DNA from: Scytonematopsis contorta HA4267-MV1
Lineage (GTDB): Bacteria > Cyanobacteriota > Cyanobacteriia > Cyanobacteriales > Nostocaceae
Assembly: GCA_019359035.1 (NCBI GenBank)
Contig: JAHHIC010000067.1
Span: 78,078-110,077, forward strand
Direction of reading: 5' to 3'
DNA length: 32,000 bases
The notes beneath the pieces were generated by a model. The model made no database searches and was not told the origin of the DNA. It was given only the letters and a program-made list of their open reading frames with translations. Below are positions 309 through 31,125 of the stretch, piece after piece (positions within the stretch are counted from its first letter, which is position 1; each line of letters starts with the position of its first letter). The translations under genes were made by a program, and so were the position numbers.

Positions 309-2159
309 CTATAGTTTTCGTAAATCCTTTAAAGTAGGCGAACTTACATAAGATTCTGCTTGCATGTTGTATAACTTTGCATATGTACCTTGATTATTTA
401 TAAGCGCCTCATGTGTACCGTATTCTATAATTCGTCCATCTTGTAAAACAGCAATCGTATCAGCCATTCGCACAGTGCTAAAGCGATGTGAAATTAAAAC
501 ACCAGTACGTTCTAGCATGAGTTGAGCAAAATGACTATAAAGTTCATATTCAGCCTGAGCATCCAACGCTGCAGTTGGTTCATCTAAAATAAGTAAATCC
601 GCAGAACGGGAAAACATGCGAGCAGTTGCCACCCTTTGCCATTGACCCCCTGACAAATCAATACCCTGCTCTTCCTCAGCAAACATCCGGCTTAACTCGG
701 TCTCATAACCTTGGGGTAAACGCATAATATCATCATGAATGCTTGCTTGTTGTGCCGCTTGCTGTATGCAAGTAATATCATCAATTTTAGCTAAATTCCC
801 TAAACCTATATTCTCGCGCACTGTCAAATCATATCGCATAAAGTCCTGGAAAATAGTACCAATTCTTTGACGATATTCACTCGGTTGAAATTCGCGAATA
901 TCAATTCCATCCCACAAAATCTGTCCTTCAGATGGGTCATATAACCGAGTTAGTAACTTAACTAAGGTGGTTTTCCCAGCACCATTAAGTCCCACCAAAG
1001 CCAAACAACTACCAGCAGGAATCTTTAAATTGACATCGCGTAATATCCAGGGTTGCTGTTCGCTATAACGAAAAGAAACATGACGCAATTCTAACCCAGA
1101 TGAGAGTTTTGGCACCAACTGTGTAACCGATTGAACAGGTAATGCAGGTGGTAATGCTAATAAGTCTTGGTAATAGGAATGGAAAAGTATACTCTCATTA
1201 ATACCAGCAACTCCAGAAATAAATTGACTTAAAGCATCTTGAACCGAACTAACCGCACTTACATATAAGGTAATATCACCTAACGTAAGCTTTCTACTAA
1301 ATGCAGCAAGCACTACCATAATAAAGGCTATACTCGCTACAACACTAGAAAAAATACTTAAGCCCAACTCCCAACGTAACTCCCGTTGTTGTTGTTTTCG
1401 CTCTGCTTGATGAACCTGTTTATATAATTTAAGCAGTTTATGGAGAAAATATTGTCCCAGTCCGAAAAGGCGTACTTCCTTTGCAGCTTGTACACCAGCA
1501 AGTAAAAAGCTGTAATAAAACTTACGACGTTCCACGGGGCTAAGTTCAAAAGCAAGTCCAAACCGTTGCTGTCCTAATTTCAACTGCACAAGTAGTTGAG
1601 GGAAAGCCGCAAACAAAACGAGGTTAGCCAAAAAGAGATTGAACGAGAACAAGACACCAACAAAACTCAATAAAGTCACTAGACTTTGAATTAACTCTGT
1701 GAGAACATGCAGTGTCTGCTTAGAACTTTGCTCAGCACCTTCTTGAGCAAGACGAATCGTATCATAAACTTTAGGATTTTCAAAATGTGCGATTCCCTCA
1801 AAACGATTTATTTTTTGGTAAACAGTTGACTGAATTAGCACCGTCAGTCGTCGTCCGAGTTCGGCATTTAGGTAATTGCTCAGGTTGGGTAGCATTGCCG
1901 TAGCAACCATTAACATTGCCTGTACAACAAGCAACCAAATTAATTGCTCTTTCGACATTCTCCCACCAACCAGTAATTTTGCTAATCCATCAAATAACAC
2001 TTTAGTTACCCAAGCATTTGCTAGAGGGATTAGTCCTTGAAAAATTGTAATAATAAAAGTCCCTATACAAGCGGTCGGATATGCTTGCCATACCAGCTTA
2101 AGCATGTGGAATATAGATAGGAGAAATCGCGGTCTATGTTTAAGCTCGTCTAACATCAC
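309..2159 (-). CDS. ABC exporter, fused permease + ATPase (MsbA/MdlB-like half transporter) without a C39 peptidase domain
   Basis: 616-aa ORF. The N-terminal about 300 aa are hydrophobic (6-TM type). Motifs: Walker A GLNGAGKTT, signature LSGGQWQR, Walker B LLILDEPT, H-loop ISHR. Its start overlaps the upstream S26 gene by 20 nt. Confidence 0.9.
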   Translation of the reverse strand: MMLDELKHRPRFLLSIFHMLKLVWQAYPTACIGTFIITIFQGLIPLANAWVTKVLFDGLAKLLVGGRMSKEQLIWLLVVQAMLMVATAMLPNLSNYLNAELGRRLTVLIQSTVYQKINRFEGIAHFENPKVYDTIRLAQEGAEQSSKQTLHVLTELIQSLVTLLSFVGVLFSFNLFLANLVLFAAFPQLLVQLKLGQQRFGLAFELSPVERRKFYYSFLLAGVQAAKEVRLFGLGQYFLHKLLKLYKQVHQAERKQQQRELRWELGLSIFSSVVASIAFIMVVLAAFSRKLTLGDITLYVSAVSSVQDALSQFISGVAGINESILFHSYYQDLLALPPALPVQSVTQLVPKLSSGLELRHVSFRYSEQQPWILRDVNLKIPAGSCLALVGLNGAGKTTLVKLLTRLYDPSEGQILWDGIDIREFQPSEYRQRIGTIFQDFMRYDLTVRENIGLGNLAKIDDITCIQQAAQQASIHDDIMRLPQGYETELSRMFAEEEQGIDLSGGQWQRVATARMFSRSADLLILDEPTAALDAQAEYELYSHFAQLMLERTGVLISHRFSTVRMADTIAVLQDGRIIEYGTHEALINNQGTYAKLYNMQAESYVSSPTLKDLRKL

Positions 2160-2736
2160 TAGTTCCCCTCAGTTGCTGTAGGCTATCCAAATCAGAGTGA
2201 GGTAATAATTTCAATACAGCTATACCTGTTATAGCAGACAGAGGTATTGGTCCCACTGCTAAAGAATCCATACTAATTAGTCCATCTCCACGCAAAAAGC
2301 AATGGTTTTCTGGCACTTTCCAAACTAAATTTCCTTCTTCGTCGCAGTGCGATCGCAATTTTGTTTGCATAAACTCATGCAAGCTGGATATGGGAATACA
2401 CACCGTATCCCCAGGTAAACCAACGATGCGTTTAATAAATTTGGGACAGCTTGACTCAAATGGTATGTTTTCTCGGTCTAACTCGCTTATAGTATCAATA
2501 TCTAAAAATTCGTCTCCAGAAGACGGTACTTCTAACTCATTGATATTACCAATTACAATTTGCCCTTTACGTAACCAAAGATGTGGTAAGAGATTAAAGC
2601 TGAGTAAACGGTCAGCTTCCACAAGCGTTGGGAACATACTGTCACCATGTACTGTAGTGATAGTGAAATTCAATCTCACAAAAGCAATTATCACCAAACA
2701 TACAATAACTAAAATAGTCACTAGTTGTATCGACAT
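2140..2736 (-). CDS. S26-family signal peptidase I-like protease with a single N-terminal TM anchor
   Basis: 198-aa ORF with TM segment IQLVTILVIVCLVIIAFV. Box B GDSMFPTL carries the Ser nucleophile, box D KRIVGLPGD the general-base Lys, and box E is GDGLISMDS. AGGAAAC lies upstream of the ATG. Confidence 0.85.
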   Translation of the reverse strand: MSIQLVTILVIVCLVIIAFVRLNFTITTVHGDSMFPTLVEADRLLSFNLLPHLWLRKGQIVIGNINELEVPSSGDEFLDIDTISELDRENIPFESSCPKFIKRIVGLPGDTVCIPISSLHEFMQTKLRSHCDEEGNLVWKVPENHCFLRGDGLISMDSLAVGPIPLSAITGIAVLKLLPHSDLDSLQQLRGTSDVRRA

Positions 2737-2762
2737 GAGAATAGTTTCCTGTTTTTGAGAAA

Positions 2763-2794
2763 GACCTCTGGAGGCTCTGCAAACCTCAGAGGTC
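2763..2794 (-). promoter_or_regulatory. Stem-loop between the precursor peptide gene and the peptidase gene (possible attenuator or processing site)
   Basis: GACCTCTG (2763-2770) pairs with CAGAGGTC (2787-2794), and the stem extends through GAGG/CCTC with one bulge. On the minus strand it starts about 31 nt after the peptide stop. Only a short TTTCTC follows, so it is not a canonical intrinsic terminator. Confidence 0.4.
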
Positions 2795-2825
2795 AGTAGG
2801 TTGGGTTAAAGATTTTTACAGGTCT

Positions 2826-3017
2826 CTAGCAGGATACATAGAATGATGATGTTCTACAACCAAGCCAACCGCAACATCTTTCCTTACAGAATTTTCGACG
2901 ACGTATGCATGAAAAGCAGGTTCTCCAACAAAATGCAGCAGCATTCTCGGATGGTAAAAAGTAGCCCAGTAGTTTGTCAGCTACATTCGTGAAAAAATTG
3001 TTCGTTAGGTTATTCAT
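2826..3017 (-). CDS. 63-aa cysteine-rich cationic precursor peptide (putative 28-aa leader + 35-aa core with 8 Cys)
   Basis: A strong SD precedes the start (AGGAGAAAATC-ATG). The sequence is MNNLTNNFFTNVADKLLGYFLPSENAAA / FCWRTCFSCIRRRKFCKERCCGWLGCRTSSFYVSC. All 8 Cys lie in the last 35 aa. The gene sits inside an operon of redox, protease and export genes. Confidence 0.7.
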   Translation of the reverse strand: MNNLTNNFFTNVADKLLGYFLPSENAAAFCWRTCFSCIRRRKFCKERCCGWLGCRTSSFYVSC

Positions 3018-3130
3018 GATTTTCTCCTGTTTGACTTTGTTTTATGATTCTTGTTTTGGTACATTACATTCTGGTCATTTCTTCAAAACATTCATTAAGC
3101 ATCACCTCCTTTACTGAATTCAGCTTCATA

Positions 3131-3703
3131 TTAAACTATTGCCAATACTTGCATCAGTTGCTCCTCCCATCCAGGTTTAAACACACCAGCGGCTGCTACA
3201 TGACTATCATGGTTAATTATGCAGTAAGAGGGAGTAGCAAGAGCTTTGTAGTCACTAGCGAATGAATTACTTTCGTTGGGAGCAATCAGAACAGGTAGTG
3301 CCACATTATGCTTTTTCACAAATGTTTCCGTTTCCGCTTTATCCCCATCGGTATTCACTAGCAACATTTCTACACCAGCTTGCTTAGCTTTAGCAGCAAG
3401 AGCATTAAGCTTTGGTATTTTCTCCAAACATGGACTACAGTGAGGTGAAACAAAGATAAACGAAACTACTTTATGAGCATAGTCAGCAAGCGTCACAGTT
3501 TCACCAGTTAATTTTTGTGCTTGAAAATCAGGTGCTGAAATACCTTTTTCTAACCCCACATCCATGTCAGCAAAAGCAGACAAGTTTGTTGACATATCAT
3601 TGAATCTACGAATAAGAGCAATAGTTAACAACAGATTCAATAACACAACAATCCATAATAAAACTGAATTAGCAACCCAAATTCGTAACATAAATTCGTA
3701 CAC
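3131..3703 (-). CDS. Membrane-anchored TlpA/ResA-family thioredoxin-like thiol-disulfide oxidoreductase (MauD-like)
   Basis: N-terminal TM VANSVLLWIVVLLNLLLTIALI. The thioredoxin fold carries the CxxC motif in VSPHCSPC, preceded by APDFQAQKLTGETVTL, which is typical of the TlpA/AhpC-TSA family. The real start is probably the ATG at 3691 (MLRIWV...) behind AAGAGGTG, rather than the GTG at 3703. Confidence 0.85.
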   Translation of the reverse strand: MYEFMLRIWVANSVLLWIVVLLNLLLTIALIRRFNDMSTNLSAFADMDVGLEKGISAPDFQAQKLTGETVTLADYAHKVVSFIFVSPHCSPCLEKIPKLNALAAKAKQAGVEMLLVNTDGDKAETETFVKKHNVALPVLIAPNESNSFASDYKALATPSYCIINHDSHVAAAGVFKPGWEEQLMQVLAIV

Positions 3704-3706
3704 CTC

Positions 3707-3754
3707 TTGGTAATTTGATTGATTATTTAGTTGGTAATTTGATTGATTATTTAG
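3707..3754. repeat. Perfect 24-bp tandem duplication spanning the MauE-like stop codon
   Basis: TTGGTAATTTGATTGATTATTTAG occurs at 3707-3730 and again at 3731-3754, followed by a partial third copy (TTGG). Confidence 0.9.
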
Positions 3755-4269
3755 TTGGGTTGAAATAAACGGTAAATTTCACCTAATTGCGCCCAAATGA
3801 TAAAAAATGCTAGAGATACAAATCCTGTAATTCCGAAAGTTAAAGGCGTAATTGGATATGTTAATTCTGGCTTTGTAGCTAAGCAAGCACCACCACAAGA
3901 ACATAATAAAAAACCAAAGTTACGTAATAAATCTGCTTGTGAAACAGTATGTTGACTTGCTCCAAAACAATTGCAATTGACTTGAATATTACGAAACAAA
4001 ACCGAAGCTAGAGCAACTGAGAAAATAACTAACAAAACCGAAGCTAATGAAAAAGCAATTACCTGCCATCTAAACAAAAAGAGTACAACAAGTAATTCAC
4101 TGATTAAGACAATTGTGGCTACTAACGGTGTGAATAACTTGGGTAAGAGCTGAAATTCGCGTACCGAATTTGCGTATTGTGGAAAACTTTTTATTTTAGA
4201 AAGAGAAGATATCAAAAATAAAAAGCCCACTACAAGTTTACAAAAGACTAACAGACATGTGTACTGCAT
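3751..4269 (-). CDS. MauE/DoxX-family redox-associated integral membrane protein
   Basis: 172-aa polytopic hydrophobic ORF with Cys clusters VNCNCFG and LLCSCGGAC. As I recall it, the CxCFG motif is characteristic of the MauE family. It is the first gene of the minus-strand operon. Confidence 0.7.
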   Translation of the reverse strand: MQYTCLLVFCKLVVGFLFLISSLSKIKSFPQYANSVREFQLLPKLFTPLVATIVLISELLVVLFLFRWQVIAFSLASVLLVIFSVALASVLFRNIQVNCNCFGASQHTVSQADLLRNFGFLLCSCGGACLATKPELTYPITPLTFGITGFVSLAFFIIWAQLGEIYRLFQPN

Positions 4270-4490: not shown

Positions 4491-7400
4491 TTAATTTATT
4501 CTCCTACAAGATACAGGAGTCAACAAAGGGCTATAAGAACTAGTGTCAGAATTTGCGATTAAAACAACTTCCCCTTTATTGTCCAACACCCAACCAGTGG
4601 CTTCTATGATAGGTTCTACGGTCGGAACAGTTATTTTACTGATATCAGATGAACTATTGCGGTTTACAGTGCTTGGATAAAGAGTAATTAAATCTACCTC
4701 TACAGCATCAGTATTAAGAGCTTCACCTGGATTAGGAGGCAAACCACCGCGTCCGGTAATAATAAATTCGCTCTTTGCAGTAGTTCCACCAGTAGTACAG
4801 CCCTGCGCCACCTTAGTATCAACTGGTACAGTTGGCAACTCAATTAAGCCACTATTGGGGTCAACTTCAGGTGCATTGAGTTCTGTAGTACCACTTAATT
4901 CAGGACTAGCCCCAGTAACGGTGATGTCACTTGTTTTATCAGATTCCACATTTCGGAATTTGATGCCAAACAGACCTTCCGTGTTGATTCTTATTTTTCC
5001 TCCCCGAAAGTCGGTAGAATCAGCCCTAATATCGCTATTTTCAATTGCCGTTAATAGGTCTGTATTAATATTGATGTTTCCACCGATAACATTTTCACCT
5101 CTTGCGTTGGTAACAATATTACTATTACGGCTCATTATCAAATCTTGTGAATTAATATTAATTGTCGCCTGCAGCCTATTAGACTCAACTTTAGCACTGC
5201 CTGTGCTAGCGTTAAGTAAACCATTGTTGTTTAAACGGATAGAACGAGCATTTAATGCCATATTGCCAGCGGTTCCTGTTCCGGAACTCTGCACCGTCAC
5301 TGTAGCTCCATCTCGCACAAGTAAGGTATCAGTTTTAATCATCAAATCTCCTGCATCCCCTGTTGAGTTTGACTCTGTGGAAGCAAACAAGCCACTGGCA
5401 GACTGATTATTGGAACTTCTACCAATCAGTTGTACATCCTGGGCATCAATAGTTAAATTTCCCCCCTTGCCCGTAGCAAGTGTACCGTTACCCACCTGTG
5501 CCCCATTTTTGACTAACAAGGTATTAGTTTTAATCGTTAAATCTCCCGCATCCCCTGTTGAGTTTGGCTCTGCAGAAGAAAACAAGCCACTGGGAAACTG
5601 ATTATCAACGCTTTTACCAATAAGTTGCACGTCAATAGCATCAACGATTAAATTTCCCCCCTTACCCGCACCAGCTGTACCGTTACCCACCTGTGCTCCA
5701 TCTTTGATTAATAAGGTATTAGTTTTAATCGTTAAATCTCCTGCATTACCTATTGAGTTTGGCTCTGCTGAAGTGAGCAAGGCACTGGCAACCTGATTAT
5801 TGGAACTTCTACCAATCAGTTGTACATCTTGGGCATCAACCGTTAGAAAACCTCCCTTGCCCGTACCAAATGTACTAGCAATCACCTGTGCCCCATCTCT
5901 GACTAACAAAGTATTAGTTTTAATCGTCAAATCTCCGGCATCACCTGTTAAGTTTAATCCGGAAGCAGCAAACAAGCCAGTAGCGAGAACCTGACCATCG
6001 ACGGTTTTACCAGTCAGTTCAATGTTTTGGGCATTAACGCTTAAATTTCCCCCCTTGCCCGCATCACTAGTACTAACGCTCACCTGTGCCCCATCCTTAA
6101 CTAGCAAAGTATTAGTTTTAATCGTCAAATCTCCTGCATTCCCTGTTGAGTTTGACTGTGCGGAAGCAAGCGAGCCACTAATAAGTTGCATGTTTTGGGC
6201 ATCAACGGTTAAATTTCCCCCCTTGCCCGCACCACTAGTACTAGCACTTACCTGTGCCCCATCTTGAACTAACAAGGTATTAGTTCTAATCGTCAAATCT
6301 CCCGCGTCCCCTGTTGAGCCTTGCACAGTTCGAGCAAACAAGCCACTGGGCAAACCATCAGTATTTCTACCAATCAGTTGCACGTTTTGGGCATCAACGG
6401 TTAAATTACCCCCTTTACCCGTAGCAAAGGTAGCAGCAATTACAGCCCCATCATCAACAAGCAAAGTGTTTGCACTGATATTGACATCGCCCCCCTGTCC
6501 ATTTGCTTCTGTTACGTTAAAAATGACACTCCCATTGTTCAGAGTAATTCCTCCCGTTGCATTAACCTGAATATTTCCTGCCTTATTATTATTAGAAGCC
6601 AGTCCAGTCTCTATGCCTGCAAAAAGAAAACTTCTTTCTGTCATCTCTAAATTCCGGGCATTAACAGCGATACTACCACCATTACTAGCTGTAACTTTTA
6701 CGGACGCACCATTACTAAGGGAAATATTACTTCTTTCGGCGCTATCAGGAAAACTCAAGCTCAGATTATTTCCATCATTATTTAAGCCAACTATTCCCGC
6801 ACTTGTTAACCCACCTAACTCAATTCGTCCACCAAAAGCATACAAACCTCCAGCATTCATATTGATATCACCCCCAACCAACAGCAAACTCTTGCCATCT
6901 AGTACGCGCAAACCCCTTGCTATGGAATCAGAAGATTGATTCCAACCAGAGTCTGTAACTGAGTTATTTTCGATAGATGCTGCACGAACTTGGTTAAATA
7001 GCAAAGCAGAAGGATTAATTGTCAACAGTGGAGGAGTATTCGGATTTGTTGCACTGAAAAAATTGCCCTTACCAAACTCAATGGCATTAGCTGTACTCGC
7101 AACAAAAGAACCACCAATATTTAAAGAAGCATTACCACCAAAAACAATACCCGACGGATTAATTAGAAACAAGTTAGCTGTTCCGTTGGCTTTAATTATT
7201 CCATTAATGTTAGAGACAGACCCACCCGTGACTCGACTAAGAATGTTCTGAATATCTGTAGCATTATTAAATATTGCAGCACCACCCCTTGGGACAGAAA
7301 ATTCCCCAAAACTATGGAACAGGTTGCTTCCTGCTTGGGTTCCCCCAGTGATATTAAAGATGTTTCCCTCTCTCCGCACATTGGAGTTATTAGGTAAAGT

Positions 7401-7511
7401 ACCATCCGGTGTAATTTGAGCGTTCGCACAATTATTACTCCACAGGTTTGCACTACATATTGCAATACCTATAAACAAGCCCCAACGATTACTTATCTGG
7501 AACATTTGCAT
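4491..7511 (-). CDS. Filamentous haemagglutinin N-terminal (TPS) domain exoprotein, TpsA-like, with a beta-helical repeat body
   Basis: Signal peptide ...NCANA-QITPDG. TPS-domain motifs are NITGGTQAGSNLFHSFGEFSV and LFLINPSGIVFGG. The Gly/Asn/Thr-rich body contains repeated GDAGDLTIKTNTLLVxDGAQV...GKGGNLTVDAQ units. Confidence 0.9.
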   Translation of the reverse strand: MQMFQISNRWGLFIGIAICSANLWSNNCANAQITPDGTLPNNSNVRREGNIFNITGGTQAGSNLFHSFGEFSVPRGGAAIFNNATDIQNILSRVTGGSVSNINGIIKANGTANLFLINPSGIVFGGNASLNIGGSFVASTANAIEFGKGNFFSATNPNTPPLLTINPSALLFNQVRAASIENNSVTDSGWNQSSDSIARGLRVLDGKSLLLVGGDINMNAGGLYAFGGRIELGGLTSAGIVGLNNDGNNLSLSFPDSAERSNISLSNGASVKVTASNGGSIAVNARNLEMTERSFLFAGIETGLASNNNKAGNIQVNATGGITLNNGSVIFNVTEANGQGGDVNISANTLLVDDGAVIAATFATGKGGNLTVDAQNVQLIGRNTDGLPSGLFARTVQGSTGDAGDLTIRTNTLLVQDGAQVSASTSGAGKGGNLTVDAQNMQLISGSLASAQSNSTGNAGDLTIKTNTLLVKDGAQVSVSTSDAGKGGNLSVNAQNIELTGKTVDGQVLATGLFAASGLNLTGDAGDLTIKTNTLLVRDGAQVIASTFGTGKGGFLTVDAQDVQLIGRSSNNQVASALLTSAEPNSIGNAGDLTIKTNTLLIKDGAQVGNGTAGAGKGGNLIVDAIDVQLIGKSVDNQFPSGLFSSAEPNSTGDAGDLTIKTNTLLVKNGAQVGNGTLATGKGGNLTIDAQDVQLIGRSSNNQSASGLFASTESNSTGDAGDLMIKTDTLLVRDGATVTVQSSGTGTAGNMALNARSIRLNNNGLLNASTGSAKVESNRLQATININSQDLIMSRNSNIVTNARGENVIGGNININTDLLTAIENSDIRADSTDFRGGKIRINTEGLFGIKFRNVESDKTSDITVTGASPELSGTTELNAPEVDPNSGLIELPTVPVDTKVAQGCTTGGTTAKSEFIITGRGGLPPNPGEALNTDAVEVDLITLYPSTVNRNSSSDISKITVPTVEPIIEATGWVLDNKGEVVLIANSDTSSYSPLLTPVSCRRIN
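5230..6500. repeat. Intragenic tandem repeats of about 168-198 bp in the TpsA-like gene
   Basis: The marker G(T/A)(C/T)AAATCTCC recurs at 5341, 5536, 5731, 5926, 6124 and 6292, giving spacings of 195, 195, 195, 198 and 168 bp. Confidence 0.8.
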
Positions 7512-7518
7512 AATTCAA

Positions 7519-7581
7519 GTTGGCTGTTGGCTGTTGACTGTTGACTGTTGACTGTTGACTGTTGGCTGTTGACTGTTGACT
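7519..7581. repeat. STRR-type heptamer array, 9 x GTTG(A/G)CT (CAACAGT/CAGCCAA on the minus strand)
   Basis: Nine exact 7-bp periods from 7519 to 7581, starting 8 nt upstream of the TpsA-like ATG. On the mRNA-sense strand the unit reads AGTCAAC/CAACAGT, which matches the STRR3 heptamer described for heterocystous cyanobacteria. Confidence 0.85.
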
Positions 7582-7830
7582 CTATTTTTCAGATAGGATT
7601 GCTATATTAGGGCTTGAAGTTTAGTTAATGCTTTTGCTAATCTTTGTTTATTACTTCTCGGTTCAAAACATTAGAGGTTCTGCTATTTTTTACAAAGCTT
7701 AACGATAAAATATTAATCCGAAAACGAGTACTTTTGATACACAAACTCAACATTCAACTACTTACGTATAAAAAACTAATTTTTAAATATAATAGTCTCA
7801 AAATTGACAATTCTAATAAAACCTATTTCT

Positions 7831-7878
7831 AGTCCTCTTTAGAGGACTTTAGCTTTTAGACAGGGAATTTATTCCCTG
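7831..7878. repeat. Twin short hairpins in the divergent TpsA/CHAT intergenic region
   Basis: AGTCCTCT-TT-AGAGGACT lies at 7831-7848 and CAGGGAAT-TT-ATTCCCTG at 7861-7878. Function unknown. Confidence 0.5.
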
Positions 7879-7977
7879 GCTATCGTGGGAAGGGGTGGTA
7901 GTATTTAAGTAAATATAGTTATGATTATGACATGAATTTTTAGTGGTGCAATATGTCAGTTAAGAAGATTAAATGCA

Positions 7978-10635
7978 TTGGGCGTTGAGGTTGCAATCGA
8001 AAGCGAGGACAAGCATATGCACAAAAAACGTTTAGTAACCTTAATGCTACTATTAGCTTTGTTTTTGGGAACAGCGATATTACCAAGTTTCGCCCATTTA
8101 CCTGAGCAAAAGACTATTGTGCAGAATATAAAAGTACCTCAGCAACTAGACCAACAAGGCAGGAAACTCTACGCAACCGGATATTTTTCCGAAGCTATTA
8201 CTGTTTGGCAACAGGCTGCTGCTAATTTCCAAGCCGTCGGTGATAAATTACAGCAAGCGATGGTGTTAAGTAATTTATCATTGGCTTATCAGCAATTGAG
8301 TCAATGGAAAGAAGCCAAGAGTGCGATTTCTCAAAGTCTAAATTTATTAGAAAATTTGGATAATCCATTGGATAATTCAAAGCAGCGTTCGCAAATTTTC
8401 GCTCAAATTTTGGATGTACAGGGACGTTTGCAACTCTCATTATCACAACCGGAAGCAGCGCTAAATACTTGGAAACAAGCGACTAATATATATAGTCAAC
8501 TAAATGACAAAGCTTCCGTTAATCGCAGTCGCATTAACCAAGCGCAAGCTTTGCAAAATTTAGGGCTTTACCGACAAGCTGAAAAAATATTAGCTGAGAC
8601 AGGACAAGCCCTTCAAAAAGAACCAGACTCTTCTTTGAAAATTACCGGACTGCGTAGCTTGGGTAATGTTCTTCGTGTCATTGGTGATTTAGAAACATCC
8701 CAGCAAGTTTTGCAGCAAAGTTTACAAGTAGCACAAGCATTGTCTGATTCCGAAGCTATGGGTGATGTGCTTTTGAGTTTAGGCAACACAGCCCACGCAC
8801 AAGGAAACATATCAGCCGCTATCAAATATTACCAGCAAGCAGTTAGTATTTCACCAACCGTACGTCTTCCAGCACAGCTAAAGCAACTGAGTTTATTGCT
8901 GGAAAATAAGCAAATAAGTGCTGCTCAAGCGTTAGTACCAAATATTCAATCTCAAATTAATAATTTACCCACCAACCGTATAGGGGTTTATGCTCGGATT
9001 AACTTAGCAGAAAGTTTGCTAAAGTTATCAGCAATTAATAGTAGTCAACAAAATAATAATCAACAAAATAACAATCAACAACCAATAACAGATATTGGAA
9101 AGCTACTAGCAAAAGCTGTTCAACAAGCAAAAACCCTTGGTGATAAACGCGCTGAATCTCAAGCCTTGGGGTGGTTGGGGAAAGTTTACGAACAAAATCA
9201 GCAGTTTTCTAATGCAAAAGACTTGACTCAACAAGCTTTACTTATAGCTCAGAGTATAAGAGCGTTAGATATTACCTACCAGTGGCAATGGCAGCTAGGA
9301 CGCTTACTAAAGCAACAAGGAAATAACCAAGAAGCAATTGCAAGTTACACTGAAGCCGTTAATTCTCTCCAATCTCTCCGTAGTGATTTAGTAGCCATTA
9401 GTTCAGAAGTTCAGTTTAATTTTAGGGAAGAAGTAGAGCCAGCATATCGTCAATTGGTCGATTTACTTTTAACAACATCCGTAAACACTGGCAATACAAA
9501 TAATAGTAATAGTCAAAAATATATCCTCAAAGCTCGTGAGGTAATTGAGTTACTTCAGTTAGCGGAACTGGATAACTTTTTTCGTGAAGCTTGTTTACAA
9601 CCACAACGTCCAATTGACCAAGTTATTGATACTGAAGACCCAACAGCAGCAGCCATTTATCCAATTATTTTGCCAGACCGACTGGAAGTTATCCTAAAGT
9701 TACCTGGCAAAGCTCTGCGCCATTACACCACTATGGTTAGCCAGAGCAAAGTCGAAAGTACACTGAACGAACTGCGTCAAAATCTTACCACACCTCATAC
9801 TTTGCGAGTTGCTCAGTCTTTATCTAAACAAGTGTATGATTGGCTGATTCGACCTACAGAAGACGAATTGACTAAAAATCAGGTGAAAACCTTAGTATTT
9901 GTACTCGATGGTGTTTTACGCAATATCCCAATGGCAGCTTTGTATAATGGTAAACAGTACTTAGTGGAAAACTACAGCATTGCTTTAACCCCAGGTCTAA
10001 AGTTAATTAACCCCCAAAGATTGCAAAAGCAACAATTAAAGGCGATAACTGCTGGAGTCAGTGAACCACGTGGAGGATTTTCGGCACTACCTAACGTCAA
10101 GCTGGAATTAGCAGAAATTAAGTCTCAATTGCCTAGCGAAACACTTCTTAATCAAGAGTTTACCGCTCAAGCTTTGCAAAACAGCGTCGGTTCACAGCCT
10201 TTTCCCGTAGTACATTTGGCAACTCATGGTCAGTTTAGCTCCGAGGCAAAGAAAACATTTATTGTCGCTTGGGATAAACGCATTTATGTCGATGAACTGG
10301 ATAACTTACTCAGAACTAGAGACATCAGTCAACCTGAAGCAATTGAACTACTTGTTTTGAGTGCTTGTCAAACAGCTGCTGGAGACAACAGAGCGGCTTT
10401 AGGTATTGCTGGTGTCGCTATACGAGCTGGGGCACGCAGTACTTTGGCTTCTTTGTGGAATTTAGATGATGAGTCTACTGCTTTGTTAATGAGCCAATTC
10501 TACCGAGAATTAGCTACCAAGAAAATACCTAAAGCTGAAGCGCTCCGTCGTGCTCAATTAACTTTGTTAAAGAATCCTCAATATAGACGTCCGTTGTTTT
10601 GGGCACCTTATGTTTTATTGGGTAATTGGCTCTGA
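7978..10635 (+). CDS. Secreted TPR-repeat + C-terminal CHAT (caspase-fold) protease domain protein
   Basis: The likely true start is the ATG at 8017 (GAGGA upstream), giving MHKKRLVTLMLLLALFLGTAILPSFA as a signal peptide. A long TPR-like region contains an N/Q low-complexity tract. The CHAT dyad context is VVHLATHGQF (His) and LVLSACQTAAG (Cys). Confidence 0.9.
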   Translation: MGVEVAIESEDKHMHKKRLVTLMLLLALFLGTAILPSFAHLPEQKTIVQNIKVPQQLDQQGRKLYATGYFSEAITVWQQAAANFQAVGDKLQQAMVLSNLSLAYQQLSQWKEAKSAISQSLNLLENLDNPLDNSKQRSQIFAQILDVQGRLQLSLSQPEAALNTWKQATNIYSQLNDKASVNRSRINQAQALQNLGLYRQAEKILAETGQALQKEPDSSLKITGLRSLGNVLRVIGDLETSQQVLQQSLQVAQALSDSEAMGDVLLSLGNTAHAQGNISAAIKYYQQAVSISPTVRLPAQLKQLSLLLENKQISAAQALVPNIQSQINNLPTNRIGVYARINLAESLLKLSAINSSQQNNNQQNNNQQPITDIGKLLAKAVQQAKTLGDKRAESQALGWLGKVYEQNQQFSNAKDLTQQALLIAQSIRALDITYQWQWQLGRLLKQQGNNQEAIASYTEAVNSLQSLRSDLVAISSEVQFNFREEVEPAYRQLVDLLLTTSVNTGNTNNSNSQKYILKAREVIELLQLAELDNFFREACLQPQRPIDQVIDTEDPTAAAIYPIILPDRLEVILKLPGKALRHYTTMVSQSKVESTLNELRQNLTTPHTLRVAQSLSKQVYDWLIRPTEDELTKNQVKTLVFVLDGVLRNIPMAALYNGKQYLVENYSIALTPGLKLINPQRLQKQQLKAITAGVSEPRGGFSALPNVKLELAEIKSQLPSETLLNQEFTAQALQNSVGSQPFPVVHLATHGQFSSEAKKTFIVAWDKRIYVDELDNLLRTRDISQPEAIELLVLSACQTAAGDNRAALGIAGVAIRAGARSTLASLWNLDDESTALLMSQFYRELATKKIPKAEALRRAQLTLLKNPQYRRPLFWAPYVLLGNWL

Positions 10636-10817: not shown

Positions 10818-11435
10818 TTATAAAGTCGCATTAAAAATTTGTTGTGCGGTCAGGTTTAGCTCTGGGAATACAGTAGAAATAATGCGCTCGGACTCCCTAA
10901 ATTGAGAAACCTGATATTCGTCATCAACTAAGTTATAAATTGATAAAGTTGGTTGTTTTGGGCTACCGATATATTTAACACCACCCAACCCAAGATAATC
11001 TACAATCCAATACTCAAGTATTTTTAGTTCCTCATACTCACCCATCTTTTTATAATAGTCATCGCGCCAATTTGTACTAACTACTTCAACCACTAAGGGG
11101 ATAGAAGCACCACTCTGAACAGTAGAATATTTTGCCCAAAGTTCTTCTGTTTTTAAAGCCGGTTTATTAAGTACTAATACATCTGGAGAGTAAGCGGAAT
11201 CACTAGTGGCAGATTGGACTAATGCAGTTTTGGGAATTGAGTAAGGTAATTTTAAACGTTTGATTTCCGAGGAAATTTCAATATTTAAAAATCCTGCAAC
11301 ATCTTCATGGTCTCCAGTTGGCTGTGACATCTCAACTATTGCCCCATTATGTAGTTCGTAACGTTTATCTGAATTTTCTGGAATCCACTCCAAAAATTCT
11401 CGAACTGTTATTGGTTTGAATAATGCTTGAGTCAT
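10818..11435 (-). CDS. Uma2-family (DUF820) PD-(D/E)xK-like endonuclease
   Basis: 205 aa. Motifs: FLEWIPENSDKRYELHNGAIVEMSQPTGDHE, SPDVLVL, PLVVEVVSTNWRDDYYKKMGEYEELKILEYWIVD. This is the typical Uma2 pattern, which is very abundant in cyanobacteria. Confidence 0.85.
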   Translation of the reverse strand: MTQALFKPITVREFLEWIPENSDKRYELHNGAIVEMSQPTGDHEDVAGFLNIEISSEIKRLKLPYSIPKTALVQSATSDSAYSPDVLVLNKPALKTEELWAKYSTVQSGASIPLVVEVVSTNWRDDYYKKMGEYEELKILEYWIVDYLGLGGVKYIGSPKQPTLSIYNLVDDEYQVSQFRESERIISTVFPELNLTAQQIFNATL

Positions 11436-17292: not shown

Positions 17293-20241
17293 CTGCAGTC
17301 GTCCGACCGGGAGCGGATAAAGATAAATCCCCCTAACTTCATACCTTATAAAGGAACTGACCATTTCGTTGGACGGTTAGAAGAACTGGCCGCAATTCAC
17401 GAAAAATTTAACCAGCAAAAAAACGCGGTCGCAATTTCTGCGGTCGCTGGGATGGGAGGTGTGGGTAAAACAGAGCTAGCGTTAAAATATGCACGCTCCC
17501 ATGAAGATAATTATCCTGGGGGGATTTGCTGGTTTAGCGTCCGCTCTAGTAATATCGCAACTGAAATTCTCAACTTTGCTAAAAATGACCTGAAATTAGA
17601 AATACCACAGAAAGACGACTATCAAGAACAACCCCTGACACTTAAAGAACAAGTACAATGGTGTTGGCGAAATTGGCAACCACCTGAAGGGTTCGTTTTG
17701 GTAGTATTTGATGATGTAACTGATGTAGAAAACTTTGCTGATTATTTACCAACAAATCAGCGCTTTCGGGTCTTGATAACAACCAGATTGCGAAATATTG
17801 ATACTGAAATTGAAGAAATATCTTTAGATGTACTATCACCTGAAGAAGCTTTAAAATTATTAAAAAGCTTGATTGGCGAAAACAAGGTAAATAAAGAGCT
17901 AGAAAAGGCTAAAGAGTTATGTGAATGGTTGGGATATTTACCATTAGGTATAGAATTAGTAGGAAGACATGTATCTAAAAAGCCTCCTCACTTTACTTTA
18001 GCTAAAATGCTGGAGCAGTTGAAACAACAGCGACTGTATCAAGAAGCAATAAATCCCAAGCAAAAGACTTTAAGTACAGCACAGCTTGGTGTACAAGCAG
18101 CGTTTGAATTAAGCTGGTTGGAGCTAGACGAACAAACACAAAAAGTTGCTGCATTGTTAAGTTTATTTGCAGCAGAAATTTTTGCATGGGAGTGGGTAGA
18201 GTCTATAACTAATTCCCTTTATTGGGATGAAGATGTTGTTAACACAGCGATTGAGCAACTTTACCAAAGACACTTAGTTAATGGCTTAGAAGAGTCGGAT
18301 ACATATTACTATAAAATCCATACCTTAATTCGCGAATTTTTACAAGAAAAGCTAGCAGCGTTACCAGAAGCTGAGGAGTTTAAAAGAGTGTTAGCGCATT
18401 ATTTTATAGAAATTGCTCAGTCAATTCCTTATTCAGCAACCCTAGAGATAATCGCGGGAGTAAAAAGTGCAATTCCCCACTTAGCTGTTGTTGCAGAAAA
18501 TTTGATAGATTCGGTTAGCGATGAAAATTTAATTTGGGCTTTTGTTGGTAATGCTAGATTTTACTCCTCACAGGGTTTGTATGTGCTAGCAGAACCTTGG
18601 TATAAGCAATGTGTATTGGTCGTAAAATCTCACTTAGGAGAAAATCATCCCTACTATGCTGGTAGCTTGAACAATTTAGCTGGACTCTACTGCTCTCAAG
18701 GAAAATATGAAGAAGCTGAACCGCTTTATATCGAAGCATTGGAGTTAACAAAACGCAACCCTGGAGAAAATCACCCCAACTATGCTACCAGCTTGAACAA
18801 TTTAGCTGGACTATACGAGTCTCGAGGAAAATATGAAGAAGCAGAACCGCTTTGTATCCAAGCATTGTCTTTAATAAAACGCATACTTGGAGAAAATCAT
18901 CCGGACTATGCTGGTAGCTTAAACAATTTAGCTGAACTCTATCGTTCCCAGGGAAAATATGAAGAAGCAGAACCACTTTATATCGAAGCATTGGAGTTAA
19001 CAAAACGCAACTCTGGAGAAAATCATCCGGACTATGCTAACAGTTTGAACAATTTAGCCGTACTCTACTACTCTCAAGGAAAATATGAAGAAACAGAACC
19101 ACTTCTTATCGAAGCATTGTCTTTAACAAAACGCATACTGGGAGAAAATCATCCGGACTATGCTAACAGCTTGAACAATTTAGCTGAACTCTATCGTTCC
19201 CAGGGAAAATATGAAGAAGCTGAACCGCTTTATATCGAAGCATTGTCTTTAACAAAACGCATAACAGGAGAAAATCATCCGGACTATGCTAGGAGCTTGA
19301 ACAATTTAGCTGGACTCTATCGTTCCCAGGGAAAATATGAAGAAGCTGAACCGCTTTATATCGAAGCATTGTCTTTAACAAAACGCATAACAGGAGAAAA
19401 TCATCCGGACTATGCTACCAGCTTGAACAATTTAGCTGTACTCTACAAGTTTCAAGGAAAATATGAAGAAGCTGAACCGCTTTATATCGAAGCATTGGAG
19501 TTAACAAAACGCAACCCTGGAGAAAATCACCCCAACTATGCTACCAGCTTGAACAATTTAGCTGTACTCTACAAGTCTCAAGGAAAATATGAAGAAGCTG
19601 AACCGCTTTATATCGAAGCATTGTCTTTAAGAAAACGCATAACAGGAGAAAATCATCCCGACTATGCTCAAAGCTTGAACAATTTAGCCCTACTCTACGA
19701 CTCTCAAGGAAAATATGAAGAAACAGAACCATTTCTTATCGAAGCATTGTCTTTAAGAAAACGTATAACAGGAGAAAATCATCCCGACTATGCTCAAAGT
19801 TTGAACAATTTAGCCCTACTCTACGACTCTCAAGGAAAATATGAAGAAGCTGAACCGCTTTATATCGAAGCATTGTCTTTAACAAAACGTATTTTAGGAG
19901 AAAATCATCCCGACTATGCTAGCAGCTTAAACAATTTAGCTGCACTCTACGACTCTCAAGGAAAATATGAAGAAGCTGAACCGCTTTACACGCAAGCATT
20001 GGAGTTAAGAAAACGCATTTTAGGAGAAAATCATCCCGACTATGCTCAAAGCTTAAACAATTTAGGTGGACTCTACGACTCCCAAGGAAAATATGAAGAA
20101 GCAGAACCACTTTACCAGCAAGCTCTAATTGTTTGCGAACAGAAGTTAGGTGTTGGTCATCCAAATACAATTACAGTTAGAGCTAATTATGCTGAGTGTT
20201 TAAAGTTGATGTCCTATAGAGGATTTGCAAACAATCTTTAG
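17293..20241 (+). pseudogene. NB-ARC STAND NTPase + 12 TPR (42-aa, kinesin-light-chain-like) repeats (segment 3, same frame as segment 2)
   Basis: The frame is open directly after the TGA: LQSSDRERIKINPPNFIPYKGTDHFVGRLEELAAIHEKFNQQKNAVAISAVAGMGGVGKTELA. The first ATG (17452) lies inside the Walker A loop, and there is no ATG, GTG or TTG between 17293 and 17451. Other motifs: Walker B LVVFDDV, RVLITTR, and GLPL-like GYLPLGIEL. Confidence 0.85.
18637..20148. repeat. 12 x 126-bp near-identical tandem repeats encoding the TPR sensor array
   Basis: GGAGAAAATCATCC(G/C)GACTATGCT recurs with an exact 126-bp period, and 12 x 126 = 1512 bp. A degenerate 13th unit starts at 20149 (GVGHP). Confidence 0.9.
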
Positions 20242-22923: not shown

Positions 22924-25900
22924 ATGGTAGATTGGTTAGTCGTTTGGGGAGCTACCAAAGCATTTGGGGTTTTAGTGACTCCATTCCTCCAGGATTTAGC
23001 GAAAGATGGAGCAAAAGACCTCGCTGTAGGTTTTTTTAAAGACACTCTCACCCATCAATTCCGCGAAAAAGACCCGCGTCAGGTTGCGACTGGTCAAGCA
23101 ATTAAGATACTTTTACAGCGCATACAGCAAGAGTTAAAAATTCGTCATAAAATTCCTGACCCGGAAATTCAGCATTGCGTCTCGGATGTGAAAAAATTTC
23201 TTGCTCAAAAGCAGGTACAGGAATTTCTCGGACAACCATTTGATTTAAGCTGCGATTCTTTAGATAGCAACACCCTCAAAAAATACTGGGACGATTTAAA
23301 GTTAATATCCCTACCACCTAATTTTAACTGGTCGGGTGTCACGGAAGATTATTTCTTTCAAGTCAAAACAATTCTCGATGACCCCGAATCAAAGGATTTA
23401 AGGGATATCCTTCAGTGTCAAAAGCTCGCAGATATTGATAAAGCTACCCAAGATATTAGAAAAAACACTCAAGAAATCGCCGGAATTATTCCAGAGTTTG
23501 ATTTAATCACATATCAAGAAGCTATTTTAGAAACTTACGAAAAATTAAAGTTAGATAGCTTAGACACGAGCGGATATGCTTACAACGAACTAAAACTGTG
23601 GCGCATTTTTACAGAGCAAGATGCACGCGCTGTACATCAATATTTACCCCGCGTTTACGAACTACCTAAAGAGCATTTCCAAAAACTCAAATCCAGCGAC
23701 CAAATTGAAGCACGCGATTTTAACGAAGAAGAAATCGCCAATCTCAAACGCGGTTATCTGGAACAACCAATTACCCCTGTCCTAGAAATTGTTCGTCAAA
23801 AGTCTACTTATAAATATACCGTTATTTTAGGCGACCCTGGCTCTGGTAAATCTACTTTATTACAACATTTAGCGGTAACTTGGGCAAAATTATCACCCCA
23901 AGAAGCAGCAAAACAAGATATTCCTTTATTAATTGAACTGCGTACTTATGTTCGCAAGCGCGAAAATCAAGAATGTAAAAATTTTCTTGATTTCTTCCAT
24001 AACTGTAGCGGTGTTATTCACCATCTTAACCAGCATCTATTACACGAAGAATTAAAAGCTGGTCGCGGTTTGGTTATGTTTGACGGGTTAGATGAAATTT
24101 TCGACCCAGCAATCCGCGAAGATATTATTACCGACATTCACCGCTTTACCAATACTTATCCCAACGTCCAAGTAATTGTTACTTCTCGCGTTATTGGTTA
24201 TAAAGCAGATAAGTTAAAGAACGCGAGATTTTCTCACTTTATGTTACAAGATTTGTCAGCAGCACAAATTCAATATTTTATCCAGCGCTGGCATAATTTA
24301 ACATATGATAACCAAGAGGAACGACAAAGAAAAAGCGAGCGCTTATCAAGAGGTATTCATAATTCATTCGCAATTCAAGAACTAGCTGGAAATCCGCTAT
24401 TGTTAACAATGATGGCGATTTTAAACCGCAACCAAGAGTTACCCAGAGATAGAGCAGAGCTATACAATCAAGCATCGCGAGTGTTATTGCATCAATGGGA
24501 TGTCGAGCGCGTTTTAATTGAAGATAAACGTATTGACCCGAAAACAATTGACGATAAAGATAAGCAATCAATGCTGCGCGAAGTTGCTTATAAAATGCAA
24601 ACTAGCGCTAAAGGTTTAGCGGGTAATTTAATTGAAGAAGCAGATTTAAAGAAGATTTTAAGCGAATATCTCAGAAATAACAATATTTATCCCGCAGAAT
24701 CAAGAGAAGTTGCAGTATTGATGATAAACCAACTGCGCGCTCGTAATTTCATGTTATGTTTCGTTGGTGCGGAATATTATGCTTTTGTTCATCGCACTTT
24801 CTTAGAATATTTCTGCGCGACTAAATTTGTAATAACGTTCGAGAAAGAGCAAAGTCTTTCTAAAGAACAATTAAAAACAGAAATTTTCGGTCAACATTGG
24901 CAAGATGAAACCTGGCATGAAGTGTTACGCTTAATAGCGGGGATGATTGATGCTAAGTTTGTCGGTGAGATTATTGATTACCTCATGAAGCAAAAGGGGG
25001 AACGAGAGAATTTTAGCAATATTTTTCTTGCAGCTAAGTGTTTGCAAGAGGTAAGAAATAGGACTGTAATTGCTGAGGTGAGCGAAAAATTATTAAATGA
25101 GCTAAAAGGCTTGATTCGTTATGTTATCATTAGGGCTTCGAGCAGTACAATAAACGAAACAGTTAATCAAATTCGTAAAGATGCAATCTCTGCTATTGCT
25201 ATTACATTTATTGATGACCCTGATACCCTCCCTTGGGTAAAACAACTTGCTACAAAGGATAAAGATAGGTTTGTGCGAAGTACTGCTGTATGGGGATTAG
25301 CACATAATTATAAAGACGACCCCGATACCCTCCCAATCCTAAAACAACGCGCTACACAGGATGAAGATATGTTTGTGCGAATTACTGCTGTCAGCGAATT
25401 AGCAGGTAATTATAAAGACGACCCCGATACCCTCCCAATCCTAAAACAACGTGCTACACAGGATGAAGTCAGCTTTGTGCGAAGTACTGCTGTAAGGGAA
25501 TTAGCAGGTAATTATAAAGATCACCTCGATACCCTCCCCTGGCTAAAGCAACACGCTACACAGGATGAATCTAGCGATGTGCGAAGTACTGCTGTAAGGG
25601 AATTAACACGTAATTATAAGGATGACCCCGATACCCTCCCAATGCTAAAACAACGCGCTACACAGGATGAATCTAGGGACGTGCGAAGAACTGCTGTCAG
25701 CGAATTAGCACGTAATTATAAGGATGACCCCGATACCCTCCCAATGCTAAAACAACGTGCTACACAGGATGAATCTAGCTCTGTGCGAAGTACTGCTGTC
25801 AGCGAATTAGCAGATAATTATAAAGACGACCCCGATACCCTCCCCTGGCTAAAACAACTCGCTACACAGGATGAATCTAGCTCTGTGCGAAGTACTGCTG

Positions 25901-27921: not shown

Positions 27922-28647
27922 TTATTGGGTAATTGGCTCTGAAGCTAAATTCTCTAAGCCTATAGATTGCAACAGGCTAGTCCAATCAGCTTTTAAAGTA
28001 CTCCTTTGTTGAACTAGTTGTTGGGCTAGGATAGTTATTGCTTCGTGCCAAATGCCATTAGAGGCATAAATTGCTACTTTCTGTCGTGCTGTGGCTTTCT
28101 CTAACTGAGTTTTGATAGTGGGGCTGAGTGACTTTCGTTGCACATTACCTTCTACGTAGCCTAAAATTCCATTATTCTCCTTGCAATAAATATTGAAATA
28201 CCAACGATACTGTTTATCAACTACGAGGGGTGTGCTTGTGTCTGGTAATTTAAAATTAACTACTCCTGGGGTGTTTTTGAAAGGAATTTTATACTTAGTT
28301 TGATTCTCGCTTGAATCTTCTAGCACAAACTCTGCATAGGTAGCGGTTGCGGAATAGGGGATATAGAACCAGAAAGTTGGATGCTCGGAGGTAGTTAATC
28401 CCCAGACTACTGGTGGTTTGGTAGAAGTAGAAATTGGGACTATTGCTGTGAGGGGTTTTTGGGCAGTTTTAACCTCTTGGTTGTTATCTCCACAGGGACG
28501 ACGGCTTCCTGCTTCCCCACGTCTACCTGGCTCTCCTATGTCTGGTGGTGGTGGGGGTGCGGCAAATATTATCGGAGATTGCGCTTTTACTGCTGTGCAG
28601 TTAAGAAGTACAGTGCTAATTAGTAAAAAAAGTTTTATTGTTTTCAT
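27922..28647 (-). CDS. Secreted DUF928-like protein
   Basis: Signal peptide MKTIKLFLLISTVLLNCTAVKAQ, followed by PPPPPDIGEPGRRGEAGSRRPCG and LTAIVP...GLTTSEHPTFWFYIPY. As I recall it, this is the DUF928 pattern found next to CHAT/CHASE2 genes in cyanobacteria. Confidence 0.65.
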   Translation of the reverse strand: MKTIKLFLLISTVLLNCTAVKAQSPIIFAAPPPPPDIGEPGRRGEAGSRRPCGDNNQEVKTAQKPLTAIVPISTSTKPPVVWGLTTSEHPTFWFYIPYSATATYAEFVLEDSSENQTKYKIPFKNTPGVVNFKLPDTSTPLVVDKQYRWYFNIYCKENNGILGYVEGNVQRKSLSPTIKTQLEKATARQKVAIYASNGIWHEAITILAQQLVQQRSTLKADWTSLLQSIGLENLASEPITQ

Positions 28648-28670
28648 GGTTATAAACTAAAGGAATATAA

Positions 28671-28760
28671 CGAACCGCCAAGGAGCCAAGGAAGCCAAGT
28701 TTAAGCAGTTTAAAAGAGAGATTTCTCTTCCCTTGGCGCTCTTGGCTTCTTGGCGGTTCG
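28671..28760. repeat. Long imperfect inverted repeat of GCCAAG(G/A)-type heptamers bridging the CHASE2 gene stop codon
   Basis: The arms 28671-28699 and 28732-28760 are reverse complements at 25 of 29 positions, with a 32-nt loop. The right arm encodes the C-terminal tail ...AKKPRAPREE of the upstream ORF. Confidence 0.8.
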
Positions 28761-31094: not shown

Positions 31095-31125
31095 CAGTAT
31101 CTAAATTTTAACTTTTAGATGTAAA

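Follow-up and report, generated by a model that had tools for sequence, protein, structure and literature searches.

We analysed a 32,000-nucleotide stretch of DNA from the cyanobacterium Scytonematopsis contorta HA4267-MV1 (contig JAHHIC010000067.1, positions 78,078 to 110,077; hereafter the window), in which five co-directional open reading frames (ORFs) on the minus strand, spanning positions 309-4269, bring together a small cysteine-rich peptide, a peptidase, an ATP-binding cassette (ABC) exporter and two thiol-disulfide proteins. An ORF check of the window found all five exactly where an initial annotation of this DNA had placed them, including the gaps of 47, 113 and 89 nt between successive genes and the 20-nt overlap of the last two. 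Read in the direction of transcription, these genes encode a MauE-family membrane protein of 172 aa (3751..4269, minus strand), a membrane-anchored thioredoxin-fold protein resembling MauD, TlpA and ResA (3131..3703, minus strand), a 63-aa precursor peptide with 8 Cys (2826..3017, minus strand), a 198-aa putative leader peptidase of the S26 (signal peptidase I) family with a Ser/Lys dyad (2140..2736, minus strand), and a 616-aa ABC half-transporter made of a six-helix transmembrane domain (TMD) and a nucleotide-binding domain (309..2159, minus strand). Pfam bore out the earlier family assignments of the four larger products, with PF07291 for MauE, AhpC-TSA/Redoxin for the thioredoxin-fold protein, Peptidase_S26 (PF10502) for the peptidase and ABC_membrane plus ABC_tran for the exporter, and gave no family for the precursor. 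We consider it probable that this operon is a complete cassette that produces and exports a small cationic peptide with four disulfides, a bacteriocin-like or signalling mini-protein.

The precursor divides into a 28-aa amphipathic leader region ending in Ala-Ala-Ala (MNNLTNNFFTNVADKLLGYFLPSENAAA; 2934..3017, minus strand) and a 35-aa core region with 8 Cys and a net charge of +7 (FCWRTCFSCIRRRKFCKERCCGWLGCRTSSFYVSC; 2826..2933 including the stop codon, minus strand), and an AGGAG motif stands 8 nt upstream of its ATG. For the thioredoxin gene, the start most likely lies at ATG 3691 rather than at GTG 3703; this ATG has an AGAGG motif upstream and yields a protein of 186 aa, the length found in the related loci L081 and L088, and the gap to the MauE gene becomes 59 nt instead of 47. 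The ABC gene may likewise start at ATG 2156, in which case its overlap with the S26 gene would shorten to 17 nt. Between the precursor and S26 genes the sequence folds into a 14-bp hairpin (2763..2794, minus strand; -23.3 kcal/mol, z -2.0), and strong hairpins occur at this position, the only one compared, in 4 of 7 related loci (L081, L084, L093 and L097). Hairpins after the precursor gene are common in bacteriocin operons, and the one seen here is a possible attenuator or mRNA-stabilising element.

A precursor family with conserved leaders and variable cores

An exhaustive hidden Markov model (HMM) search of 1.84 billion representative proteins recovered 79 representatives of the precursor family at E<=1e-3, nearly all of them 45-125 aa long apart from one 816-aa chance match and two odd-sized hits. 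Word-indexed searches understate the family, returning 55 proteins with the S26 query and 20 with the precursor alignment. Among 87 aligned precursors, none matched an NCBIfam model, and the sole Pfam match was a spurious hit of one sequence to a viral family. Their shared leader runs to about 24-51 aa and follows the pattern M-N-x-L-T-N-x-L-L-T-K-V...A-D-K-L-L-x-x-x-L-P-x-x-x-A-x-A, and mean pairwise identity is 36% for the leaders and 10% for the cores once the shared Cys are excluded. A partly motif-guided count at the junction of leader and core put Ala at position -1 in 83/87 members, and at position -3 Ala in 72/87 and Val in 10/87 (Ala or Val in 82/87); unguided alignments also show the -1 Ala to be invariant or nearly so. 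An Ala-x-Ala junction is the classical specificity of S26 enzymes, and GG, GA or GS junctions were absent from the family leaders, with the window precursor and 72/87 members ending in Ala-x-Ala instead. We infer that cleavage takes place directly after this motif.

The cores contain 4, 6, 8, 10 or 12 Cys, an even number in 87/87, and the 87 leaders combined hold a single Cys, which is the signature expected of fully paired cysteines. Orthologues of the window peptide have its framework C-x3-C-x2-C-x6-C-x4-CC-x4-C-x8-C in common, and an AlphaFold2 model built with the family alignment as input folds the window core into three predicted beta strands at a predicted local distance difference test score (pLDDT) of ~90, with the leader at low confidence. 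Measures of hydrophobicity separate these leaders from export signals: the maximum 10-aa hydropathy is 1.1 in the window leader (controls 1.9-2.8) with a family median of 1.21 (1.9-4.1 in Sec or anchor controls), the longest stretch free of D, E, K, R, N, Q and H has a median of 6 residues against 10-18 in controls, and the helical hydrophobic moment has a median of ~2.0 against ~1.0. A Sec-type signal peptide was considered for the leader and is ruled out by hydropathy and charge. Judged by their sequences, the peptides are an unannotated family defined by a shared amphipathic non-Sec leader and a hypervariable core. A conserved leader joined to a variable core beside processing genes is the arrangement by which peptides made on ribosomes and modified after translation (RiPPs) are recognised, and it is present here. 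Neither in the window nor in related loci does the cassette have a conserved modifying enzyme beyond those for leader removal and disulfides; by the usual convention such a product counts as an unmodified, disulfide-containing bacteriocin-like peptide.

The genes around the precursor are conserved with it. The same gene set recurs on contigs with S26 homologues of 94%, 70%, 55%, 37% and 33% identity, with 1-4 small ORFs between the thioredoxin and S26 genes that bear a window-type leader and 8 or 12 Cys, some of them not called as genes in the source annotation. Loci reached through distant precursor homologues again contain MauE, thioredoxin, precursor, S26 and ABC genes, and across loci found via S26, precursor or ABC homologues the full five-part set is present wherever the contig allows. 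This recurrence in every related locus with enough flanking sequence argues that the arrangement is not due to chance. The initial annotation had asked whether such clusters carry a small Cys-rich ORF, and they do, with 1-4 per related locus with enough sequence; its proposal that the MauE/MauD-like pair serves the 8-Cys peptide gains support from these ORFs as well as from the Ala-x-Ala leader and the gene fusions described below.

A metagenome scan, in which the family-specific transmembrane half of the ABC protein was the query, hits were annotated with our own HMMs and loci of at least 7 kb were counted, revealed that S26, MauE and thioredoxin genes occurred together in 6/6 loci at an ABC-TMD identity of at least 40% (all 6 with a precursor), in 9/21 at 28-34% and in 2/15 at 27% or less, such that co-occurrence drops with falling ABC similarity. 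Loci of the 28-34% tier have a median GC of 0.70 and the order precursor-thioredoxin-ABC-MauE-S26. Overall, the five parts recur in no fewer than four gene orders, evidence for a functional module rather than inherited synteny. Cassettes were seen in Nostocales, in Chloroflexota and in actinobacterial-like high-GC contigs, the named hosts including Scytonematopsis, Halotia, Nostoc, Cyanomargarita, Thermocoleostomius and several metagenome-assembled genomes (MAGs) of Chloroflexota. A Caldilineaceae locus, for example, has a thioredoxin gene, an 85-aa precursor, an S26-ABC fusion and MauE, and the complete genome of Thermocoleostomius sinensis has MauE, thioredoxin, an unannotated 83-aa precursor, S26 and ABC, then a periplasmic adaptor (MFP) and a MacB-type permease.

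Several neighbours of related cassettes were also recorded. In T. sinensis (CP113797, L100 7958-10673) the MFP and MacB_PCD/FtsX permease genes follow the ABC gene co-directionally; elsewhere an FtsX permease precedes S26 (L090 1-606) and an MFP lies near the cassette (L081 1-583), and these neighbours may provide a route across the outer membrane. In L091 (2109-4679) an 856-aa protein with two SBP_bac_1 domains sits between a 12-Cys precursor gene and S26. The Chloroflexota MAG GCA_039178835.1 (L097; MEM8532669/70, MEM8534968, MEM8535436) has protein accession numbers that suggest at least three separate cassettes. Several related cassettes, though not that of the window, have LuxR-type regulators or two-component genes at their flanks. 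In the closest relative, the ABC gene is followed by one for a 344-aa protein (weak Asn_synthase C-terminal match; L088 10608-11642); as a candidate lasso-type cyclase it was rejected, being missing from other cassettes (the equivalent side is not covered by the window).

Within the window itself, a 24-nt unit (CCGCCTCAAGTAGCAAGCAAGATG) occurs in nine tandem copies (91% matches) just downstream of the ABC stop codon, at 79-299, and generates spurious repeat-encoded ORFs on both strands. At 4491-10635 and 27922-31911 are cassette neighbours typical of filamentous cyanobacteria, namely genes for a TPS-domain filamentous-haemagglutinin-like protein and for CHAT-TPR, DUF928, CHAT-CHASE2 and DUF1822 proteins; parts of this neighbour set also flank the cassette in L081 (8830-12621; DUF1822, CHAT-CHASE2) and L088 (1-4996; TPS, CHAT). 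The TPS/CHAT genes were rejected as components of the system, as they are not conserved beyond close Nostocales relatives. The window also has a Uma2-family endonuclease gene (10818-11435) and two large STAND-type NTPases (17452-20241 and 22924-26979), one with NB-ARC and many TPR repeats and one with NACHT and HEAT repeats.

Enzymes, exporter and a proposed mechanism

Turning to the enzymes, the MauE protein matches PF07291 at E 8.6e-23 (81.5 bits; gathering threshold 27), and its CXC motif, C99-N-C101, lies between helices 3 and 4. The residues C99, C101, K25 and E58 are invariant across nine cassette homologues. Two distant MauE homologues are reported to replace DsbB in E. coli, where they complement a dsbB deletion, with the CXC as active site, a quinone held by conserved Glu and Lys in the model, MauD as the likely DsbA-like partner, and a TOPCONS prediction that puts the CXC in the periplasm (bioRxiv 10.64898/2026.03.05.709764). 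The thioredoxin-fold protein of the window matches AhpC-TSA/Redoxin at E about 1e-18 to 3e-18, has the active site C89-S-P-C92, and shares an invariant CxxC and cis-Pro with its relatives (10 homologues). Its best NCBIfam score was to the ResA subfamily (67 bits, below cut-off), the MauD model TIGR02661 gave 35.7 bits against a cut-off of 188.6 with a match spanning the anchor and CxxC region, and its nearest solved relatives are ResA and DsbE-like proteins.

The S26 protein matches PF10502 at E 4e-16 and signal peptidase I TIGR02227 at 55.1 bits (cut-off 47), which makes it the sole cassette protein that passes an NCBIfam model; a match to the SodX-type TIGR02754 was weak (E 8.5e-4). Ser33 (codon 2638-2640) and Lys102 (codon 2431-2433) are invariant in 21 homologues, and a hydrophobic N-terminal anchor begins at residue 1. 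As the initial annotation had noted, the ABC exporter has no C39 domain, Pfam finding only ABC_membrane and ABC_tran with the TMD right at the N-terminus. It scores below the cut-off of every NCBIfam equivalog, the top scores being those of MsbA, HlyB and HepA, and its homologues number at least 464 clusters (90% identity) at E<=1e-150. Cassette ABC proteins keep at least 49% identity along their whole length, also in loci where identity between the S26 proteins is down to 33-37%, which marks these exporters as a dedicated orthologous group.

In the mechanism that we propose, the 63-aa precursor, with its 28-aa amphipathic non-Sec leader and Ala-Ala-Ala end, would enter the pathway and lose its leader after Ala-x-Ala to the S26 Ser/Lys peptidase, which is putatively coupled to the ABC protein by translation and is fused to it in some species. 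The ABC half-transporter would move the core over the cytoplasmic membrane, and MauE, as a DsbB-like and probably quinone-linked CXC oxidase, would act with the CxxC thioredoxin-fold protein to form or shuffle the four core disulfides. By trimming the leader beside the ABC protein, S26 would do what in double-glycine bacteriocin exporters is the task of the C39 domain. The order of these steps and the direction of the redox reaction are, like the bacteriocin-like or signalling activity of the product, what we infer from the genes.

Gene fusions, membrane sidedness and rival explanations

Fusions among the cassette proteins tie its parts together. S26 is fused to the N-terminus of the ABC protein in five protein clusters that are 66-72% identical to the window ABC, and in each of them a hydrophobic helix (residues 1-25) is followed by the S26 domain and then, after 90-140 aa of polar linker without a membrane span, by the ABC TMD; in two further loci a CxxC thioredoxin-fold domain follows S26, again with no helix between. 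The N-terminus of ABC exporters of this class is cytoplasmic, and as no helix interrupts the linker, the S26 domain of the fusions would be cytoplasmic too, where the C39 domain sits in peptidase-containing ATP-binding cassette transporters (PCATs). Charges around the membrane anchors point the same way. For family S26 anchors (n=56) the K+R values of the N- and C-flanks are 0.02 and 1.20 (C>N in 51/56, the reverse never), against 2.62 and 1.14 in a control set of 56 housekeeping signal peptidases (N>C in 38/56). The cassette thioredoxin anchors (n=9) have 0 on the N-flank and 2.22 on the C-flank (C>N in 9/9), while the controls ResA, TlpA and SipS have 3-5 K+R on the N-flank, and the MauE loops, summed over nine homologues, hold 65 K+R on the CXC side and 11 on the opposite side.

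Read with the positive-inside rule, this bias would have S26, the thioredoxin-fold protein and the MauE CXC all facing the cytoplasm. From the fusions and the anchor charge, S26 is likely cytoplasmic, the positive-inside rule being a rule of thumb, and the same evidence suggests that S26 stands in for the C39 domain of bacteriocin exporters and may act on the cytoplasmic face rather than in the manner of SipW. The initial annotation was right to see a dedicated S26 enzyme in the operon, and its further idea of SipW-like periplasmic release and cleavage has become doubtful. Extending the argument to the whole maturation machine, with N-out anchors for S26 and thioredoxin, the MauE CXC loop inside, leader-guided disulfides formed on the cytoplasmic side, an S26 cut and export of a folded mini-protein by the ABC protein, gives a reading that we hold only tentatively; an inward-facing CXC clashes with the periplasmic CXC of the characterised MauE homologues.

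The conventional alternative is that the ABC protein moves the intact, reduced precursor to the periplasm, where an outward-facing SipW-like S26 would cut it and outward-facing MauE/TlpA proteins would oxidise the core. Disulfides are normally formed outside the cytoplasm, and the same location holds for the activity of characterised signal peptidases I, of ResA/TlpA and of the tested MauE homologues, the last with their TOPCONS-periplasmic CXC and their complementation of the dsbB deletion. What speaks against it are the data just given, that is, the five S26-ABC fusions with a helix-free linker that keeps S26 on the side of the ABC N-terminus, the reversed K+R balance of the S26 anchors relative to housekeeping enzymes, the 9/9 thioredoxin anchors and the MauE loops, so that this model too is one to which we give less than even credence. 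A quite different explanation, that the genes serve housekeeping redox or cytochrome maturation of the CydDC, CcdA/ResA or Ccm type and that the small ORF is incidental, could draw on the partial matches of the ABC protein to CydC/CydD models and on the ResA match of the thioredoxin-fold protein. Those CydC/CydD scores are 175-189 bits against cut-offs of 329-630 and lie below those of MsbA, HlyB and HepA, there is one ABC gene rather than a CydD/CydC pair, no cytochrome-maturation genes were found nearby, and a homologous Cys-rich precursor and the S26 gene go with the set across phyla. We regard this explanation as very improbable, and orthology to CydDC or cytochrome-maturation genes, which the initial annotation had named as the finding that would overturn it, is ruled out on scores and context.

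The cysteines might instead serve as metal ligands or be converted, as in a metallothionein- or bufferin-like product. The peptide is small and Cys-dense, and other Cys-rich ribosomal peptides reportedly bind copper, yet the cassette encodes no MNIO/DUF692, radical-SAM, cyclodehydratase or other modifying enzyme, the thiol-disulfide pair is its sole accessory chemistry, Cys counts are always even and the model is a compact beta-sheet. Such a product is in our view unlikely.

For the peptide-exporting cassette that we favour, a number of observations count on the other side. TlpA/ResA-type proteins are usually reductants, so that the MauE/thioredoxin pair could isomerise or reduce rather than oxidise, and the junction counts owe something to the motif-guided script. 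Compared with the PDB by Foldseek, the AlphaFold2 model had no hit below E 0.3 and matched no known disulfide-rich fold, which leaves a knottin or defensin assignment unjustified. At L086 5475-5615 an ORF in the precursor position has a recognisable leader and ends three residues past Ala-His-Ala (...ATAHACHG*), with no Cys-rich continuation in any frame; the copy in L087 is identical, and such identity across two independent samples speaks against a read error, so this ORF may be a decayed precursor or an unusual product. A marine Chloroflexota-type locus (L084 4440-4892) has thioredoxin, precursor, S26 and ABC genes without an adjacent MauE. Neither an immunity gene nor an outer-membrane route is evident within the window; the absence of an HlyD/TolC-type gene, which the initial annotation had reported, holds for the window, which stops 308 nt past the ABC stop codon with that side unseen. 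Finally, our literature searches turned up no characterised member and no account of the S26 role, the Ala-x-Ala leader or the fusions, and expression, cleavage, disulfides and export are all predictions.

Relation to known systems and significance

The logic of the cassette is closest to that of the C39-ABC double-glycine bacteriocin systems and of the sublancin operon, with other protein families in each role. As in PCATs (C39-ABC proteins such as TIGR01193 and NHLM_micro_ABC1), a dedicated leader peptidase is coupled, and sometimes fused at the N-terminus, to a type IV ABC half-transporter, multi-copy precursor genes adjoin, and a conserved non-Sec leader precedes hypervariable cores. Unlike them, the cassette uses an S26 Ser/Lys peptidase rather than a C39 Cys protease and a cut at Ala-x-Ala rather than Gly-Gly, and its S26-ABC fusions have an extra N-terminal membrane helix. 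PCAT models accordingly score the window ABC at 177-237 bits against cut-offs of 524-853 (TIGR01193: 177 against 524), and the joining of leader peptidase to exporter that typifies PCATs is seen in the five fusion clusters with another peptidase family. The sublancin/glycocin operon of the B. subtilis SPbeta prophage (sunA-sunT-bdbA-sunS-bdbB) brings its own thiol-disulfide pair and ABC exporter to a disulfide peptide, and so resembles the cassette in combining a dedicated thioredoxin-like protein, a membrane oxidase and an ABC exporter; it differs in having BdbB, a DsbB homologue, in place of MauE, a C39 domain on the exporter, an S-glycosylated peptide and no S26.

Other systems share single parts. 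The mau cluster also has MauE and MauD families side by side and a small, disulfide-dense client, the methylamine dehydrogenase (MADH) small subunit with six disulfides, but mauA, mauB and mauG were not found in the window or related loci, and the client here, a 63-aa peptide with a leader, has dedicated genes for its cleavage and export. SipW, of tapA-sipW-tasA, and SodX, which acts in nickel superoxide dismutase (NiSOD) maturation, are likewise S26 enzymes dedicated to the client of a neighbouring gene. SodX is an example of leader removal by an S26 enzyme in the cytoplasm, and comes without ABC or redox partners; SipW cuts true Sec signal peptides outside the cell. Class I lasso clusters pair a DoxX/MauE-clan membrane protein with a CxxC thioredoxin-fold protein for a disulfide-bearing product, as with SviE (DoxX-family) and SviF (thioredoxin-like) of sviceucin (PMC9266682), but they need a lasso cyclase and B protease, SviF is dispensable for the disulfides, and there is no S26.

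The nearest precedent comes from decRiPPter, a 2020 genome-mining paper whose searched passages put forward a candidate RiPP class in Streptomyces, made up of three MauE families (one of them also with MauD) whose precursors each have 8 or more Cys, the MauE clusters being flagged computationally only (PMC7794033). The initial annotation knew of no peptide class with this gene set: we likewise found no characterised member, while these Streptomyces MauE(+MauD) clusters, as far as those passages describe them, had been flagged before. Against our family HMM the Streptomyces precursors score 18-21 bits and unrelated Cys-rich peptides below 4, a difference that is significant as a targeted test though not database-wide. 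Their leaders end in the same way as those of our family, with ...LL-x-R-x-V-P-x-x-x-A-x-A, as in ...GRAFARVLPQETAAA directly before the junction and AC... after it; they are shorter than those of our family, and the gene order differs. In the searched passages and supplementary files of PMC7794033 there is no mention of an S26 peptidase, of the Ala-x-Ala logic of the leader or of fusions. The system is best classed as bacteriocin-like and leader-dependent, a cassette with its own dedicated genes for processing, oxidation and export that had been partly noticed before, and what is new here relative to the initial annotation are the S26-ABC and S26-thioredoxin fusions and the reversed charge bias of the anchors.

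These observations define a family of bacterial peptides, disulfide-rich and unannotated, in which a conserved Cys scaffold carries hypervariable cores. The family is widespread in cyanobacteria and Chloroflexota and probably in Actinobacteria, and its precursors form a natural library of stable mini-proteins for mining or engineering. The observations point to a second evolutionary way to couple leader removal with ABC export, S26 with Ala-x-Ala against C39 with Gly-Gly, and add a dedicated peptide client, besides methylamine dehydrogenase, to the newly recognised disulfide pathway of MauE. If the inward topology is true, the cassette would form disulfides by a natural membrane-linked route at the cytoplasmic face and be the counterpart of PCATs with S26 as peptidase, which would be of interest to cell biologists and protein producers.

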